The position numbers and the translations under genes are program-made. From Halorhodospira halophila SL1 (GTDB lineage: Bacteria > Pseudomonadota > Gammaproteobacteria > Nitrococcales > Halorhodospiraceae): a stretch of DNA of 32,000 bases. The stretch lies in assembly GCF_000015585.1 (NCBI RefSeq), contig NC_008789.1, forward strand, positions 1,590,001-1,622,000. Reading direction: 5' to 3'. Below are positions 15,457-21,574 of this stretch, piece after piece. The stretch's first letter is position 1. Each line of letters opens with the position of its first letter. The notes beneath the pieces were generated by a model. The model was not told the DNA's origin and searched no databases. It saw nothing but the letters and a program-made list of their open reading frames with translations.

Positions 15457-15813
15457 GGGGGCGACATGGCTTCGACGCAGGTCGCGAAACCCGAGGTGCA
15501 TGCCGAGGTTACAGTCAACCTCGTAAAACAGGCTGTACTTAAAGATAGTTGCCAACGACGACAACTACGCCCTGGCGGCGTAACACCCGCCAGCTGCTCC
15601 CAGTCGGTGCCTGTGCCGGCTGACGAGCAGTCATAGACGCAGGATAGCGATGCACGGATCGGCCCGGTCCGGCATCGTGAAACTCAACGGGCTCGCGGAT
15701 GGGACGCCCTGCCGGTCGGGCGCCCAGCCGTTAAATAGAATAGACCGGCTAAGCATGTAGGACCGACGGTGTAGCTCCTGCGGACGCGGGTTCGATTCCC
15801 GCCGCCTCCACCA
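15457..15813 (+). ncRNA. ssrA: Transfer-messenger RNA (tmRNA), tag peptide ANDDNYALAA
   Basis: The 5' end GGGGCGACATGGCTTCGACGCAGGTCGCGAAACCCGAGGTGCATGCCGAGG parallels E. coli ssrA. The tag reading frame is GCC AAC GAC GAC AAC TAC GCC CTG GCG GCG TAA at 15551-15583. The 3' tRNA-like end is GGTTCGATTCCCGCCGCCTCCACCA. Confidence 0.95.
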
Positions 15814-15975: not shown

Positions 15976-16479
15976 CTACCAGGCGCCCAGGCCCTGGACC
16001 ACACCACCAGCGCCCGCACCGGCGATCACCGGCAAGGGTAGAGAGGCGAGCAACCGAACCCCGGTGGCGCGGCCGCCGAGCATCGGCAACTCGAAAGCGG
16101 CGACCCGGTGAAAGGCGAGCACCGACCAGGCCGTGAGCAAAGCGATTAACTGCGGGGTGTCAGCCCCGGCTTCCAGGAGCACCACTACCAGCGGGAAGGC
16201 CACCACCGGCCCACCGGGCAGGAACCCTCCCAGCACCGAGGCCAAGAGCACGCCGAGCCACCCCGAGCCTGTACCGAAGAGCGAAGCGATCGCCTGCTCC
16301 GGGATCAACACCGCCAGAAACGCCGCAGCGAGCAACGCCGCCGGTAGGCGCGCAAGCAGCGGCCGAAGCTGACGTCCCCCCTCCTGCACCGCGGCACGAT
16401 GGCTTGCATGGGGCAGAAAGTGGGCCAGCAGCACGGAAGCCGCCAGCAGGGCCAGGATGATCAGAAAGGCAGTCAGCAT
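15976..16479 (-). CDS. Half-size integral membrane permease subunit (paralog B; possibly DUF318/ArsP-like superfamily)
   Basis: ATG at 16479 gives MLTAFLIILALLAASVLL (167 aa, hydrophobic throughout). It is about 45% identical by eye to the upstream gene (LIPEQAI...LPGGPVVAFPLVVVLL...LLTAWSVLAFHR...LASLPLPV). Confidence 0.7.
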   Translation of the reverse strand: MLTAFLIILALLAASVLLAHFLPHASHRAAVQEGGRQLRPLLARLPAALLAAAFLAVLIPEQAIASLFGTGSGWLGVLLASVLGGFLPGGPVVAFPLVVVLLEAGADTPQLIALLTAWSVLAFHRVAAFELPMLGGRATGVRLLASLPLPVIAGAGAGGVVQGLGAW

Positions 16480-17003
16480 GGCGTCGGCATCAGACGACGG
16501 GCCAGAGGACGAACCAGCAAGGCAGCGAGGAAGGGCAGCGGCAAGGAAACCAGCATCTTCAGCGCCACGAAGTCCAGGCCGAAGAACGGCACTTCCCAGA
16601 CCAGCGCCCGATTGAGGCCAAGCACCGACCAGGCTGTCAGGTAGGCCACGCACACCTCGAAGGCGGCCCCGGTGCGCAACAACGCCACAACCAGCGGGAA
16701 TGCGGCGAACGGCCCCCCCGGGGTGAGCGCACCGGCAGCGGTAGCCAGCACCAGCCCCCGGGCACCACTGCGCCGGCCCAGCCAACGCTCGATCGCGTGG
16801 CGGGGAATCAGGGTCTGAACATACCCGGACATGAGCACCGCCGCCAGGATGATCGGCGCTACCTGAAGCATCAGCTCGGCGGCCCGAGCCAGTGCCTCCG
16901 CCCAGACCGCCGGCCCGTGGAGGACGTAAACGGCGGTGCCGGCAAGCAGTGCCAGGAGCAGGAAAACGAGGGTCATGGGATCGAAGCGGCGTCGAACTGG
17001 CAT
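16473..17003 (-). CDS. Half-size integral membrane permease subunit (paralog A)
   Basis: 176 aa with LIPRHAI...TPGGPFAAFPLVVALL...YLTAWSVLGLNR...LVSLPLPF. Its stop TGA (16475-16473) overlaps the next ATG (16479-16477) as ATGCTGA. The start is uncertain (17003 or the internal ATG at 16976) and there is no obvious Shine-Dalgarno. Confidence 0.7.
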   Translation of the reverse strand: MPVRRRFDPMTLVFLLLALLAGTAVYVLHGPAVWAEALARAAELMLQVAPIILAAVLMSGYVQTLIPRHAIERWLGRRSGARGLVLATAAGALTPGGPFAAFPLVVALLRTGAAFEVCVAYLTAWSVLGLNRALVWEVPFFGLDFVALKMLVSLPLPFLAALLVRPLARRLMPTPC

Positions 17004-17164: not shown

Positions 17165-17485
17165 TCAGGACGCCGGTGCGTAAACCGAGCACCACCCTTC
17201 AGCCCGGACGAGCACGTCGTCGAAGTCCGGATGGGTGCAACGCCCCCAGCCGTTCTCGACCCCCTCCCCCCAAAAGACACAGTTCTCGCAGAGCTGACCC
17301 TCCTCGAACCTCGCATGATCGGAGGCATCCGCCGCATCGTTAACGTAATCGTGGGCGTGGCCGTCTTCGGCGCGAGACTCGGCCCGGACGCTGCCGTGAT
17401 GGAGCAGGGTCGATAACGGCAGGGCCGCCAGCGCCGCAGCGCTGCCCTTGAGGAAGGTCCGACGACTCTTGTCGATTCCGCTCAT
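17165..17485 (-). CDS. hip: High-potential iron-sulfur protein (HiPIP) precursor with a twin-arginine signal
   Basis: Starts [24 protein letters not shown] (TAT motif SRRTFLK). The mature part has four cluster Cys residues (CENCVFW...GRCTHP...[10 protein letters not shown]). An AAGAGG Shine-Dalgarno lies 9 nt upstream of the ATG at 17485. Confidence 0.93.
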
Positions 17486-17526
17486 GCTAGTCACCTCTTT
17501 TCCGCTCGGTTTACGTTGCGAGTTTG

Positions 17527-17797: not shown

Positions 17798-18145
17798 ATG
17801 ACCAGCAAGCAGCTTGAAGCCATCAATCTGGAGGCATTCACGGACCAAGAGCTCGACACCCTCGAAAAGCGCGTGGCCAAAGAGCGCAAAAGGCGCGACC
17901 GAAGCCGGATCGAGGAAGCCGAGAGAGAAATCCGCCTGGTAGCCGCCAAATACGGCATCAAGCTAGAGGAGGCGCTTAGCGATCTGAACGGTCGTACGGG
18001 GCCCTCACGCCGCCGCGTTCCCCCAAAATACCGCCACCCGCACGACCCCGACACGACTTGGTCCGGCCGGGGCCGCACCCCGCGCTGGATCCAGGAGTGG
18101 GAGCAGCAGGGCGGCAGCCGCGAGGAGCTGCGGATCGCGCACTGA
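17798..18145 (+). CDS. H-NS family nucleoid-associated DNA-binding protein (115 aa)
   Basis: Has a coiled-coil N-terminus (ELDTLEKRVAKERKRRDRSRIEEAEREI) and a C-terminal H-NS DNA-binding motif (YRHPHDPDTTWSGRGRTPRWI). A CAGGAG Shine-Dalgarno lies 11 nt upstream of the ATG at 17798. Confidence 0.85.
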   Translation: MTSKQLEAINLEAFTDQELDTLEKRVAKERKRRDRSRIEEAEREIRLVAAKYGIKLEEALSDLNGRTGPSRRRVPPKYRHPHDPDTTWSGRGRTPRWIQEWEQQGGSREELRIAH

Positions 18146-18208: not shown

Positions 18209-18231
18209 CCGGGCCAGTCGCCCTGGCCCGG
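18209..18231 (+). terminator. Stem-loop after the H-NS-like gene
   Basis: CCGGGCCAG (18209-18217), a 5-nt loop, then CTGGCCCGG (18223-18231). There is no U-tract. Confidence 0.4.
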
Positions 18232-18237
18232 TGACGG

Positions 18238-18267
18238 TTGGACAAACCGGCGGGCGCAGTTCACTAT
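18238..18267 (+). promoter_or_regulatory. Candidate promoter placing the transcription start at or next to the ATG of the orphan gene (possible leaderless mRNA)
   Basis: TTGGAC (18238-18243), N17, TCACTA (18261-18266), with the ATG at 18274. No purine-rich Shine-Dalgarno lies in between (TTTCCCC). Confidence 0.3.
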
Positions 18268-18273
18268 TTCCCC

Positions 18274-20265
18274 ATGGAAAATACCCGCGCTGACACCGAG
18301 CAGGCGCTGGAGCGCCTGACTCAACGGGTGGATGACGCCTGCGAGCGCTTGGCACGCACGGCTCACTTCGCCAAATTCACCCACTCGGCACAAGTTCTGG
18401 AATCGGTGCGGCGCCTGATGACCCACCCCCAGGGCGTCCCGGCGGCCTATGAGCGGATCGGGGCGTTAACCGACGCCGGCATCTTCTCCGGAAGCGACTG
18501 GGAACACCCTGAACACCTCCAACCGGCCCTGTCCGCCAACACCCTGAAGCTGGCTCAAGACCACACCCTGATCCTTGAGTGCTTGAGTGAACTCCGCCTG
18601 GTGGCGATTGCCAATGGCACGATCACCAACCCGACAGTCGACGCCGACGCGGCACAGCAGTTCCTGGCTCGGGTCCTAGCCCTGAACCTGCGGCTGATCT
18701 TCGGGCCGGTCAGCGAGGCCGAGCGGGTGCACCTGGGACGCAACCTGGGCATGGTGCAGCGCCATCAACGCTTCATTGCCGAGCAGGTCGGTTTCGGCGA
18801 GGTCATCGAGGAGCTGATCGGCGAGATCTGGCGCATCCTGGCGCAACGCCCTGTGGTGGTCGACCACGTCAAACAGATGATTACCAGTGTCGCGGTCTAC
18901 CTCGACAGCGATGAGCCGGGGGTCCCCGCCGCCCGTGCGCGCGGGGCAGAGCGCCTGATCAGCGCCCTCTACGGTCCGACGCGGGGCTGCCAGGAAGACC
19001 CCGGGCTGGCGGTCTACCGGGAACGCCTGGCCAGCATGGACGAGACCACCTTGCGCAACGAGGCCCTGGGGTTCGGCCGCGCCATGCACGACACCGGCCT
19101 GGTCTCGCCCTACCACCCGGTCTTCCTCCATTTCGCACTCGATCAGGCTCCCGAACTCCTGCCTGCCGCGCTGGGGCTGAGCAGCACGGGCGTCGACGCG
19201 CTGGGCTGCTACCCTGAACTGGTTCATACCCTCATCCGCCGGGCGATCTGGTCGGAAACCGCCCAGGCGGTTTACGGCCTGGCCGGACTGCTGGAACGAG
19301 GCATCCTTTATAGTGGACCGGTGGCCCCGGCCCTGTGGCGACAGATCCATCTGCCCCTCTCCGCCGCCGCCCGTCGACGCCTGACCGAACGCATCCCCGG
19401 CGCGGCGAACGCCCCGGAGGCCTTCCTGCTAGCCGGGGCCATCAACGTCCTGGGGCAGCCGCGCGGGCTGGGACAGGGCAACAGCCCCACCTGCCAGTCG
19501 GCGCGGGCGCTGTCCATGTGGTCGAGCAACGATCCCGATTACCTCCTGCAGATCGTGGCCTGGTCCGCGCGCGACGACGACGTCGTGGCGCACTTCGAGG
19601 GCGAGGCTCTGTCTTCCCAGGCGCTCCTCGCGCGCTACCCGGAGGCTTCGCTGGAGGATGTCGATGCGGTCTCGGCGGTCGCCGTACCCCACCTGGACGC
19701 CATCTATCACGAGATGGGACGGCGCTGCGTCGGCCGGGGGGAGGATCCCCACCGCTGGGTGAACCCGGAGTTCCACGGCTGGTGGGTCGGCCGCGGCTTC
19801 TCCATCGCCGTCGATGTGGCCACCGGTAGCCTACCCGACCTGGCGAGCTTCGCCCGCCGCTTCTACGGGTGCTACCACCCGAGCTACAACGGCAACAATC
19901 CGGTGATCCACCCACAACCGGCCGGGGTCGCCGTCACCAATGCAACCGCCGCCTTCGTCGGGTGGCACGCCATCACCATCGAACGGGTCTCCATGGACCC
20001 GGAGGGCGTGGTACGCGTCTACTTCTTCAACCCCAATAACGACAGTACCCAGGACTGGGGCGACGGGGTGACGGTCTCCACCGAGGGCAACGGCGAACGC
20101 CACGGGGAATCGTCCCTGCCCTTCGCGCAGTTCCTCTCACGGTTGTACATCTTCCACTACGACCCGCGCGAGGAGGCCGTCGACCCACCCGTTCCGGTGG
20201 AGGCCATCAGCGAGGTCATCGGGCGCGCCCGCACCAGCTGGGCTGCCGGGCGCGAGATCCACTGA
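18274..20265 (+). CDS. Orphan 663-aa protein: helical N-terminal region plus a C-terminal predicted papain-fold cysteine hydrolase domain
   Basis: A long ORF with GC3-rich codon usage. It carries GLGQGNSPTCQSARALSMW (Gln401, Cys407; nt 19474-19494), FVGWHAITIERV (His565; nt 19966-19968) and VYFFNPNND (Asn586; nt 20029-20031). There is no signal peptide or TM segment. The start is ambiguous (ATG 18274 or TTG 18238). Confidence 0.7.
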   Translation: MENTRADTEQALERLTQRVDDACERLARTAHFAKFTHSAQVLESVRRLMTHPQGVPAAYERIGALTDAGIFSGSDWEHPEHLQPALSANTLKLAQDHTLILECLSELRLVAIANGTITNPTVDADAAQQFLARVLALNLRLIFGPVSEAERVHLGRNLGMVQRHQRFIAEQVGFGEVIEELIGEIWRILAQRPVVVDHVKQMITSVAVYLDSDEPGVPAARARGAERLISALYGPTRGCQEDPGLAVYRERLASMDETTLRNEALGFGRAMHDTGLVSPYHPVFLHFALDQAPELLPAALGLSSTGVDALGCYPELVHTLIRRAIWSETAQAVYGLAGLLERGILYSGPVAPALWRQIHLPLSAAARRRLTERIPGAANAPEAFLLAGAINVLGQPRGLGQGNSPTCQSARALSMWSSNDPDYLLQIVAWSARDDDVVAHFEGEALSSQALLARYPEASLEDVDAVSAVAVPHLDAIYHEMGRRCVGRGEDPHRWVNPEFHGWWVGRGFSIAVDVATGSLPDLASFARRFYGCYHPSYNGNNPVIHPQPAGVAVTNATAAFVGWHAITIERVSMDPEGVVRVYFFNPNNDSTQDWGDGVTVSTEGNGERHGESSLPFAQFLSRLYIFHYDPREEAVDPPVPVEAISEVIGRARTSWAAGREIH

Positions 20266-20271
20266 GGCCGT

Positions 20272-20287
20272 CCGGCCGATAGGCCGG
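20272..20287 (+). terminator. Short stem-loop after the orphan gene
   Basis: CCGGCC-GATA-GGCCGG, starting 7 nt after the stop codon. Confidence 0.35.
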
Positions 20288-20309
20288 CTGCGCACACCGC
20301 ACCACCATC

Positions 20310-20336
20310 GTGCGCGCCCCGCCCGGGAGCGCGCAC
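20310..20336 (-). terminator. Stem-loop after ATP-grasp gene 1
   Basis: GTGCGCGC (20310-20317) pairs with GCGCGCAC (20329-20336) around an 11-nt loop, in the convergent gap. Confidence 0.35.
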
Positions 20337-20344
20337 GGCGCCAA

Positions 20345-21574
20345 TCAGACGTAGTAGTCCAGCTCCTCCTGGTGTTTGAGCAGATCCCGGAGCCGGTGCG
20401 GATTGTCTCCGAAGAAGTAAACAAGCCCCCAGTGGGTACCGAAGGCGGTCCGTTTGGTGACCACCTCCTCCTGAGGCGGGGTGAGTTCGTGGTACTCGAA
20501 GTATTCGTGCTGCTCAGTCTCCTCCGGGATCTCCAGACGGCTGACCACCCGCCGCCGCGGATAGACCCCGAAACAGCCCGCATAGCCCTTGGCGCCGACC
20601 ACCTCGCGCGGGAAGAAGGCGGTGATCTCTTCCTCGGTGGTTTTCGGATCGAAGGCCAGAACCATACCCTGATAGGCATTGAAGCCGTAAGCACGCTCGA
20701 GCAGCTCAAAGACCTTAAAACCGGGCGGCCGGTAAGCCACCTCGCCGAAGTACATGGTCCCGTCACTGGTCACGAAGTACTCGGGGTGGATGAAGCCGAA
20801 GCGGATATCGAAGGTCTTGATCAGTTTCTCGATCTCGCGGGTGATCAGCTCCCGCCAGCTTTCCAGCTCCGGCGTGGCCGGGACGAAGACCGAGTAGCCG
20901 AGCGTGACGTACTCGGAGATATTCAGGAAGCGGATCTTGCCATCGTGGATCCACGCCTCCACGGCGAACTCCCAGCCGTCCAGGTGGCTCTCCATGAGCA
21001 CCGGGAACTCCTCTTCAGGGATCAGATCCACCTCATCCGGGGTGCGGATGACGCGGTGCCCGAGGCAACCTGCCTTGTCGAAGGCCTTCAGGTGAATGGG
21101 GTCGTTAGGATCCCCGTCCAGCTTGAGCAGGGTCTGGTTCACCCGCTTGAGGAAGCGGATCACGTCGTCCTTGTCGTGGGCCTCTTCGAAGATGCCGACA
21201 CGAATGCCCCCGAGCTGCGCGCGGCGCTTCATCAACGCTTTGTCGCGGAACAGCACGGCCTGCCCGTGCAGTCGCGGATCCCCCATGAGGACCGCATTGA
21301 TGGCCCCGGCCCACTCCACCGTCTCCTCGAACAGCGGGATGGCAACATCCACCCCCTCGTCACGCAGGCGTTCGGCAATCTCCATGGAGCGGTCATTCAG
21401 CCGCTCGAAATCCCAGGGAATAAACGGGATATCGTGCTCCCGGGCGTACTCCTCGGCCCACTCCGGGGCGACGATGACGTAGCGGCGATCGAAACGGTCC
21501 AGGGCGTCGATGCAGTTGATGCTCCAACCGAGGATCGCCACATAGCCTTTGCTCGGGTCCTTCTCAGTACTCAT
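20345..21574 (-). CDS. ATP-grasp domain ligase (409 aa), substrate unknown
   Basis: ATG at 21574 gives MSTEKDPSKGYVAILG. It has a pre-ATP-grasp domain, then FRDKALMKRRAQLGGIRVG, a central lid and FIHPEYFVTSDGTMYFGEVAYRPPG (the ExxxR-type Mg/ATP loop). A GGAG lies 12 nt upstream. Confidence 0.85.
   Translation of the reverse strand: MSTEKDPSKGYVAILGWSINCIDALDRFDRRYVIVAPEWAEEYAREHDIPFIPWDFERLNDRSMEIAERLRDEGVDVAIPLFEETVEWAGAINAVLMGDPRLHGQAVLFRDKALMKRRAQLGGIRVGIFEEAHDKDDVIRFLKRVNQTLLKLDGDPNDPIHLKAFDKAGCLGHRVIRTPDEVDLIPEEEFPVLMESHLDGWEFAVEAWIHDGKIRFLNISEYVTLGYSVFVPATPELESWRELITREIEKLIKTFDIRFGFIHPEYFVTSDGTMYFGEVAYRPPGFKVFELLERAYGFNAYQGMVLAFDPKTTEEEITAFFPREVVGAKGYAGCFGVYPRRRVVSRLEIPEETEQHEYFEYHELTPPQEEVVTKRTAFGTHWGLVYFFGDNPHRLRDLLKHQEELDYYV

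Follow-up and report, generated by a model that had tools for sequence, protein, structure and literature searches.

Within the 32,000-nucleotide stretch of the Halorhodospira halophila SL1 genome analyzed here (the window, to whose positions all coordinates refer unless a locus of another genome is named), an open reading frame (ORF) on the forward strand, which begins with a TTG at 18238 or an ATG at 18274 and ends with a stop codon at 20265, encodes a protein with a candidate papain-type Cys/His/Asn site (Cys protein in the following). Its 663-amino acid translation from the ATG (18274..20265, +, stop codon included) matches a 'hypothetical protein' already deposited for H. halophila with 100% identity and comprises an all-helical N-terminal domain (residues 1 to ~395, 18274..19458) and a C-terminal domain (residues ~396-663, 19459..20262) that is predicted to be papain/calpain-like, i.e. 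of the clan-CA type. Convergent with this gene, a second gene (20345..21574, -) encodes a 409-amino acid ATP-grasp ligase resembling L-amino-acid ligases. A preliminary description, made from the sequence of this region, had presented the Cys protein as an orphan, and its account of the gene context had missed the ATP-grasp neighbor. Our comparative analysis showed that the Cys enzyme and the ATP-grasp ligase together form a conserved two-gene unit, and the sequence comparisons identify this pair as a widespread, uncharacterized module of a putative ligase and a calpain-like Cys enzyme.

The assignment of the partner was based on profile matches together with a sequence motif. Its window copy scored 21.6 bits against PF13535, below the cutoff of 27, and the copy in the metagenomic locus L086 reached 30.3 bits. 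When the ligase family profile was compared with solved structures, it matched the L-amino-acid ligases 4wd3 (expectation value, E, 8e-12) and BL00235 (3vot, E 1.5e-5), but D-Ala-D-Ala ligases only marginally (E 0.45). In addition, the ATP-grasp Mg/ATP residues E265, E278 and R282 are invariant, so that the motif Glu...Glu-x-(Asn/Ala)-x-Arg of ATP-grasp enzymes was found alongside the profile match.

The ligase gene adjoins the Cys gene in 82 of the 85 loci of the window's subfamily, and in Alkalilimnicola, Halomonas and Pelagibius a ligase orthologue that is 80-82% identical immediately precedes the Cys gene in a same-strand arrangement. A similar arrangement was found in a divergent clade of 80 metagenomic loci, whose Cys proteins are 31-42% identical to that of the window: here a ligase of 40-54% identity is adjacent in 72 loci, and six of the eight non-adjacent cases are located at contig ends. 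All seven further genomes examined carry the pair adjacent, which brings the overall count to ~160 of 172 loci. The orientation of the pair varies, with operonic, convergent and divergent arrangements, and its surroundings change while the pair itself persists. Moreover, the pairwise identities of the two proteins are tightly correlated (r=0.94, slope 1.0, 8,778 pairs). Taken together, adjacency, changes in orientation and this correlation indicate that the two genes have been inherited and have diverged as a unit. Throughout, the ligase exceeds the Cys protein in conservation by ~12 identity points, with 172 of its 409 positions invariant in 77 sequences; horizontal transfer explains part of this high identity. 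No fusion of ligase and Cys protein was seen among the matches, and clustering of the neighboring ORFs revealed no other gene conserved across the window's subfamily, the recurring clusters being either shadow ORFs or Halomonas-specific synteny.

Far from being an orphan, the Cys protein belongs to a large, multi-phylum family, which comprises at least 2,395 homologue clusters at 90% identity (E<=1e-3) and, according to an exhaustive phmmer scan, 264 clusters at 50% identity, and which is represented in at least 589 species-representative genomes. Among the hosts are Gammaproteobacteria (Halomonadaceae, Marinobacter, Alcanivorax, Ectothiorhodospiraceae), Alphaproteobacteria, Actinomycetota (Nocardia, Mycolicibacter, Streptomyces), Planctomycetota and Cyanobacteria, and, for the more divergent clade, Bacteroidota, Balneolota and halophilic Bacillota. 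The two-part architecture is retained in all full-length members. Since the Cys proteins of Actinomycetota are closer to those of other Gammaproteobacteria (mean identity 67%) than the latter are to those of the Halorhodospira clade (53%), the family tree does not follow taxonomy and points to horizontal transfer. The survey of phyletic distribution and gene neighborhood that the preliminary description had proposed yielded both a widespread family and a conserved ATP-grasp neighbor. Full-text literature searches found no paper describing the Cys family or the gene pair.

Candidate catalytic residues and probable fold class of the Cys protein

The motifs GLGQGNSPTC(407)QSARALSMW and FVGWH(565)AITIERV...VRVYFFN(586)PNND are located where the preliminary description had placed them, and their codons agree. 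Gln401 (CAG, 19474-19476) stands six residues before Cys407 (TGC, 19492-19494), and this segment (19474..19494, +) would provide the oxyanion-hole Gln and, at the start of a helix, the nucleophile. Asn586 (AAC, 20029-20031) follows His565 (CAC, 19966-19968) by 21 residues; the segment between them (19966..20031, +), predicted to form a beta-hairpin with the putative general base and the orienting Asn, is followed by Pro587. Along the sequence the four residues thus occur in the order Gln-Cys-His-Asn, which is the catalytic order of clan CA.

Such a pattern in a single protein of 663 residues is by itself trivial and could arise by chance; its near-invariance is not a matter of chance. Among 26 homologues at 55-74% identity, none deviates at any of the four positions. 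In an alignment of 36 homologues at 22-50% identity (alignment A4), Gln401, Cys407 and Pro587 are kept in 36/36 sequences and His565 and Asn586 in 35/36, and in two independent surveys Gln401, Cys407, His565, Asn586, Pro587 and Asn588 were each kept in >=98% of 133 complete sequences. Since the residues remain near-invariant at such low identities and in so many sequences, the Gln/Cys/His/Asn pattern goes beyond what chance would produce. Of the 63 positions conserved in >=98% of the 133 sequences, 51 belong to the C-terminal and 12 to the N-terminal domain. Asp590, which had been suggested as an alternative third residue, is mostly Glu in the 36 homologues and hence not invariant. The sole exception among these homologues is a protein from Mesobacillus zeae (P0178), in which Gln and Cys are kept but His565 is replaced by Leu and Asn586 by Ser, and which may be an inactive or repurposed copy. 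The conservation on which the preliminary description had made its proposal depend was thus observed, and neither Pfam nor NCBIfam nor PDB sequences returned a confident profile match to a characterized non-hydrolase family.

As the preliminary description had stated, the Cys protein could not be assigned to any named family from its sequence. Pfam gave no match for the full protein or the C-terminal domain even at E<=10, and none for residues 1-389. NCBIfam returned noise alone (for example a 'daptide' match at E 0.12), and PDB sequences were matched neither by the single sequence nor by the family profiles (A1, A4). An AlphaFold2 model of the full protein, built from the alignment of 26 sequences, had a mean predicted local distance difference test score (pLDDT) of 82.6 and a predicted template-modeling score of 0.76. 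DSSP assigned ~20 helices and no strands to residues 1 to ~395 of this model, in agreement with the all-helical N-terminal part described earlier. The absence of a signal-like or transmembrane segment was likewise borne out, the highest 19-residue Kyte-Doolittle mean in the 663-residue protein being 1.36. No relatives of the helical domain outside the family were detectable with Pfam or Foldseek. In the C-terminal domain of the model, Cys407 starts a helix (residues 407-419), His565 is part of a strand (561-574) and Asn586 comes just after another (580-585). The Cys at a helix N-terminus and the His and Asn on adjacent strands of a beta-subdomain are features of clan CA and are seen here in a model whose pLDDT is below 50 at residues 402-405; as modeled, the arrangement of Cys407, His565 and Asn586 is that of the papain fold.

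A Foldseek search of the PDB with the full-length model retrieved low-scoring armadillo/HEAT helical-repeat noise. Because this was uninformative, residues 380-663 were modeled separately (pLDDT 76.6), and with this model each of the top 50 matches was a clan-CA cysteine peptidase, albeit with weak scores. The cores of calpain-3, -2, -1, -9 and -5 headed the list, with cathepsin B, staphopain, IdeS, Pd_dinase and ZUFSP after them. The structure comparison called for in the preliminary description agrees with the conservation and the model in supporting its core idea, that in a large cytoplasmic enzyme a helical domain is followed by a papain-type Gln/Cys/His/Asn site. Its supposed resemblance to USP/UCH deubiquitinases and C39 peptidases found no support, since Pfam gave no such matches and calpains and cathepsins rank first, with deubiquitinases of the ZUFSP type appearing only at E~0.1.

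Several more specific assignments were tried and rejected. Membership in the calpain family C2 was dismissed given the lack of a PF00648 match at E<=10 and an hhalign probability of 0.2% for alignment A4 against the human calpain-1 core, the sequence of which was verified against PDB 7w7o. For the USP/UCH deubiquitinases (C19/C12) there was no Pfam match and no structure in the Foldseek top 50. A Peptidase C39/BtrH-like enzyme was set aside because there was no Pfam match and no conserved exporter, small ORF of >=50 amino acids or carrier gene with the pair. Finally, a role as an anti-phage defense or phage protein was dropped, as PADLOC and PHROGs gave no match for either the Cys protein or its ATP-grasp partner, the best PHROG for the Cys protein (E 0.14) being noise.

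In summary, the clan-CA type of the fold class, though not the exact geometry of the active site, is well indicated by the models, and the protein probably folds and works like a clan-CA peptidase. By analogy with these enzymes we infer that Cys407 serves as the nucleophile, His565 as the general base, Asn586 as the residue orienting the His, and Gln401 as part of the oxyanion hole. The most fitting description of the Cys protein is that of a new family in a known fold class, whose domain architecture and obligate partnership are likewise new, and the protein is very probably a clan-CA-type thiol enzyme that is functionally coupled to the ligase.

Gene start and surroundings of the pair in H. 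halophila

ATG 18274 is the likely start of the Cys gene, since the Met is kept at the same place in an 88%-identical relative (P0002), while the sequence upstream of it diverges non-conservatively. In the alignment of 26 homologues, conservation of the family begins at about residue 11 of the 663-residue protein. No Shine-Dalgarno-like sequence precedes this ATG, as had been noted earlier. The leaderless mRNA that the preliminary description had considered may apply to H. halophila, but it is not a conserved trait, two relatives (L007, L010) having a GGAG 6-7 nt before their ATG. The promoter that had been proposed along with the missing Shine-Dalgarno sequence fared less well. The putative element, TTGGAC-N17-TCACTA (or CACTAT with an 18-nt spacer; 18238..18267, +), would end 6-7 nt before the ATG, but TTGGAC agrees with the consensus at 3/6 positions, TCACTA at 1/6 and CACTAT at 3/6. 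A sigma-70 promoter scan reported no site upstream of the Cys gene, the putative promoter falling below its thresholds, and the region is not conserved in relatives. Likewise, the stem-loops said to bracket the gene are present as inverted repeats, but they lack T-tails. One of them, a perfect 9-bp inverted repeat (18209..18231, +), lies between the H-NS-like gene and the Cys gene; the others (20266-20285 and 20309-20337) are GC-rich and fall within the 79-nt spacer between the convergent Cys and ligase genes (20266..20344). A terminator scan called none of the three.

The Cys gene is situated, as described earlier, beyond ssrA (15457-15813) and after an H-NS-type gene (17798-18145). The view that this part of the genome is lineage-specific was not sustained: at 0.84, the G+C content at third codon positions of the Cys gene equals that of its neighbors, and the family spans multiple phyla. 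A recent genomic island beyond ssrA was rejected on the same compositional grounds and because the flanks are not common to relatives; the H-NS-like, HiPIP and ETF-QO genes are all absent from the shared surroundings of the Cys gene. The HiPIP gene, whose product carries a twin-arginine signal (17165-17494, -), lies between ssrA and the H-NS-like gene. At 15976-17003 (-), two overlapping ORFs (15976-16500 and 16473-17003) each correspond to half of an ArsP_1 'predicted permease' (PF03773) and stand either for a permease split into two genes or for a gene with a frameshift. Beyond the ATP-grasp gene, the segment 21764-26968 (-) encodes electron transfer flavoprotein (ETF)-ubiquinone oxidoreductase, a long acyl-CoA dehydrogenase, and ETF alpha and beta, none of which is common to the relatives of the pair. 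Two observations concern other genomes: in Halorhodospira abdelmalekii the Cys gene follows a gene for a UvrD-like helicase with ankyrin repeats, and a comparison of two Alkalilimnicola ehrlichii loci (L001 and L002, ~10.9-13.2 kb) revealed an IS21-type insertion (IstB and transposase) downstream of the pair in one strain alone.

Accessory genes and possible function of the pair

In the divergent clade, the pair is frequently accompanied by a third gene. In 53 of the 76 metagenomic loci with room for it (within L086-L165), a gene of the alanine racemase family lies directly downstream of the Cys gene in the same direction, and such a gene is also present at L166 (9983-11140) and L168 (10005-11162). 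Its product has matches to PF01168 and PF00842, reaches 281 bits on TIGR00492 (cutoff 168), contains the pyridoxal phosphate-lysine motif VVKANAYGHG, and also scores on VanT models. In Bacteroidota and Balneolota, ligase, Cys enzyme and racemase form a three-gene operon, and in Algoriphagus the racemase and Cys coding regions overlap. In several unrelated lineages, namely Gracilibacillus, Paludifilum and two metagenomic ones, the pair is adjoined by a gene for a GNAT_ablB acetyltransferase (TIGR03827, 236-240 bits, cutoff 205), a putative beta-lysine N-acetyltransferase. This AblB-type gene was found at four distinct loci (five listed) and in three orientations (L167, 5759-6652; L171, 8027-8908; L140, 749-1561; L147/L148, 2409-3263), with no lysine-2,3-aminomutase gene near any of them. 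Judged from their family assignments, both accessory enzymes would act on free amino acids.

Clustering of the neighboring ORFs detected no conserved carrier protein, exporter or precursor-peptide ORF of >=50 amino acids with the pair, and Rfam scans of 22 loci gave tRNA and signal recognition particle RNA alone, so that no riboswitch was found near it. Genes of arginine biosynthesis (argB/argD/argC/argJ/argG) occur near the pair in ~7-15 of 80 metagenomic loci and in Aliifodinibius, and in Balneolota-like loci (L168, 2111-6545; L090, 8306-11775) argB, argD, argC and argJ immediately adjoin the module on the same strand. They may reflect lineage synteny or hint at an ornithine/arginine substrate; we treated the link as probable synteny and not as evidence.

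Since the third genes would supply or modify free amino acids, they fit a small-molecule chemistry. In the mechanism that we propose, the ligase would introduce an amide (peptide-type) bond into a small compound derived from amino acids, at the expense of ATP, and the Cys enzyme would form an acyl-thioester with that compound or a precursor of it. The acyl-thioester might then be hydrolyzed, which would allow turnover and control of the pool, or the acyl group might be passed to another amine in a transamidation or elongation. The Cys enzyme would accordingly be a thiol amidohydrolase or transamidase acting on the amino-acid-derived product of the ligase, a reading to which we assign a probability of about 0.5; the substrate and the biological role of the pair are deduced here from gene content and sequence similarity. 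Of the 'thiol hydrolase' of the preliminary description, the thiol enzyme is retained, but hydrolysis is not established, as papain-fold partners of ATP-grasp ligases may be transacylases (PMC7183216). Because many hosts are halophilic, soda-lake or marine bacteria and some loci include the AblB-type acetyltransferase, a role in organic (compatible) solutes suggests itself. This role is speculative, and the proposal that halophiles use the pair to produce and regulate an as yet undescribed compatible solute derived from amino acids is a tentative one, with perhaps one chance in four on its side.

A number of observations weigh against the proposed amide chemistry and its structural basis. With regard to the fold, the Foldseek scores are weak, the best match (calpain-3 core) having E 4e-3, a probability of 0.85 and a template-modeling (TM) score of ~0.3, and none falling below 1e-3; furthermore, the stretch of low pLDDT in the full model (residues 402-405) directly precedes the nucleophile, and in the isolated-domain model all of residues 395-419 are below 50. 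With regard to the partnership, the Cys gene lacks an adjacent ligase despite sufficient room in H. abdelmalekii (L006) and at loci L014, L146 and L150. The links to the racemase and the GNAT enzyme are absent from the window's own subfamily, none of whose 85 loci has a racemase near the pair, and members of the family are found in non-halophiles (Nocardia, Streptomyces and Mycolicibacter among them) as well. In addition, the ligase shares 76-92% identity with its counterparts in Actinomycetota, Cyanobacteria, Planctomycetota and other Proteobacteria, which is more than is typical of small-molecule ligases, and a helical domain of 395 residues is unusual for a small-molecule amidase and would better suit a protein substrate.

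The last two points would be accommodated if the pair carried out a reversible protein modification, in which the ligase adds an amino acid to a carboxylate of a conserved cellular protein and the calpain-like enzyme, holding this protein with its helical domain, removes the amino acid or trims the protein so that the acceptor site arises, in analogy to tubulin tyrosine ligase (TTL) with vasohibin and to RimK. Large helical domains are typical of protein-binding modules, the calpain cores that provide the best fold matches belong to enzymes of limited proteolysis, the unusual conservation of the ligase extends across phyla, and in most Proteobacteria and Actinomycetota the pair is a strict two-gene unit without metabolic neighbors. 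However, the closest solved relatives of the ligase act on free amino acids rather than proteins, the third genes encode enzymes of free amino acids (alanine racemase and AblB-like GNAT), and the neighborhood surveys found no conserved candidate substrate gene near the pair. We therefore consider protein modification unlikely, and slightly more so its boldest form, in which the pair would be a bacterial counterpart of the tubulin tyrosination cycle and a new post-translational switch spread by horizontal transfer across phyla.

The three-gene operons of Bacteroidota and Balneolota, with their overlapping or closely spaced genes for ligase, hydrolase and Alr-family racemase, also recall the logic of the vanC/vanXY/vanT operon. 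In a cell-wall remodeling of this kind, the ligase would make a D-Ala-containing dipeptide, the racemase, which scores on VanT models as well, would supply the D-amino acid, and the Cys enzyme would destroy the competing normal dipeptide. Yet the similarity of the ligase to D-Ala-D-Ala ligases is marginal when set against that to L-amino-acid ligases (E 0.45 versus E 8e-12), the window's subfamily does without a racemase near the pair, a two-domain protein of 663 residues is oversized for a dipeptidase, and no resistance-type regulators were found near the pair, all of which renders this explanation improbable.

The Q-x5-C motif is shared with C39 peptidases, and the Cys enzyme could also be pictured as a C39-like leader peptidase in the maturation of a peptide that is made by the ribosome and modified after translation (RiPP), with the ATP-grasp enzyme cross-linking the precursor peptide as in graspetides. 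According to PMC8939145, pairs of ATP-grasp enzymes and Cys peptidases do occur in RiPP clusters. Nonetheless, the pair has neither a conserved small ORF of >=50 amino acids nor an ABC exporter, Pfam reported no C39 or graspetide-ligase match, PADLOC and PHROGs were equally devoid of matches, and both proteins are far more conserved than the usual genes of secondary metabolism, which makes this scenario very improbable. Least likely of all is a deubiquitinase-like or ubiquitin-like-protein-specific protease, or else a catalytically dead scaffold: the G-N-x-x-T-C context resembles the USP Cys box, as the preliminary description had pointed out, ZUFSP/ZUP1 deubiquitinases appear among the Foldseek matches at E~0.1 and the Mesobacillus member lacks His and Asn, but no UCH/USP match was obtained from Pfam even at E<=10 nor any such structure in the Foldseek top 50, the neighborhoods surveyed hold no ubiquitin-like or E1-like gene, and the near-universal retention of Gln, Cys, His and Asn speaks against a dead scaffold.

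A family found in at least 589 species genomes and in more than 2,000 clusters, with no Pfam, NCBIfam or PDB assignment, can thereby be put to the test, now that a fold class, candidate catalytic residues and an obligate partner have been assigned to it. If the production and control of a small amide are the task of the pair, as we favor, a new metabolite and its turnover enzyme could come to light, and the metabolite may be an osmolyte of marine and halophilic bacteria, among them the biotechnologically used Halomonas, Marinobacter and Alcanivorax. If it acts on a protein instead, it would constitute a new bacterial cycle of post-translational modification. Either way, a further lineage would be added to the papain/calpain fold class, and another case to the cooperation of ATP-grasp and thiol enzymes.

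Comparison with known systems

For the ligase, the L-amino-acid ligases 4wd3 and BL00235 are the best solved relatives, with ~410 amino acids and the same ATP-grasp Mg/ATP motif residues. The match to them is, however, distant and partial, and known L-amino-acid ligases have not been described with an obligate Cys-enzyme partner. A pairing of ATP-grasp and papain-fold enzymes is known from the biosynthesis of closthioamide (CtaD/CtaG) and butirosin (BtrJ/BtrH), where the ATP-grasp enzyme works with a clan-CA Cys-His-Asp/Asn transacylase that transfers the acyl group rather than hydrolyzing it, and a fold-type-III PLP enzyme is also present in a cluster of this type (PMC7183216). In contrast to the present pair, which has no carrier gene, these systems are thiotemplated and need a carrier protein, and CtaG and BtrH match the Pfam C39/BtrH families, while the Cys protein matches none.

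A resemblance at the level of gene content exists to the osmolyte operon of N-acetylglutaminylglutamine amide (NAGGN; asnO-ngg-M42 peptidase, PA3459-PA3461), which is osmotically induced and combines a dipeptide-forming ligase with a GNAT function and a peptidase gene (PMC8070244). Similarly, some loci of the pair add an AblB-type GNAT, and many of its hosts are halophiles. The differences are nevertheless considerable: the peptidase of the NAGGN operon is a metallo M42 aminopeptidase and not a thiol enzyme, Ngg is a fusion of GNAT and ligase, and the amidotransferase AsnO has no counterpart here.

The clearest precedent for a unit of ligase and thiol amidase that controls one small amide is glutathionylspermidine synthetase/amidase (GspSA). 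In this enzyme, as in trypanothione synthetase-amidase, an amide ligase of the ATP-grasp fold is combined with a papain-fold (CHAP) Cys/His amidase that cleaves the same amide. The two activities are fused there in one polypeptide, while they reside here in two genes, and the CHAP domain is small and has no helical N-terminal domain; no sequence relation was detected, although none was looked for directly.

With respect to the Cys protein itself, the comparison leads to the calpain core (MEROPS C2, clan CA). The Cys protein differs from calpains in its lack of a PF00648 match (E<=10), its hhalign probability of 0.2% and its TM score of ~0.3, in the absence of EF-hand and C2L domains, and in its unique helical N-terminal domain of 395 amino acids. 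On the other hand, both share the order Gln, Cys, His, Asn, with the Gln six residues before the Cys, as well as a division into two subdomains, a helical part with the Cys and a beta part with the His and Asn. Human calpain-1 has 157 residues from Cys to His and 24 from His to Asn; the corresponding distances in the Cys protein are 158 and 21, and in both an N-P motif follows a hydrophobic strand. An obligate ATP-grasp partner such as that of the Cys protein has not been reported for bacterial calpains (PMC4631099). With ~280-300 aligned columns, calpain cores gave the best Foldseek matches in the PDB, and as far as the model can be followed they come nearest in fold, in residue spacing and in the Asn-Pro motif.

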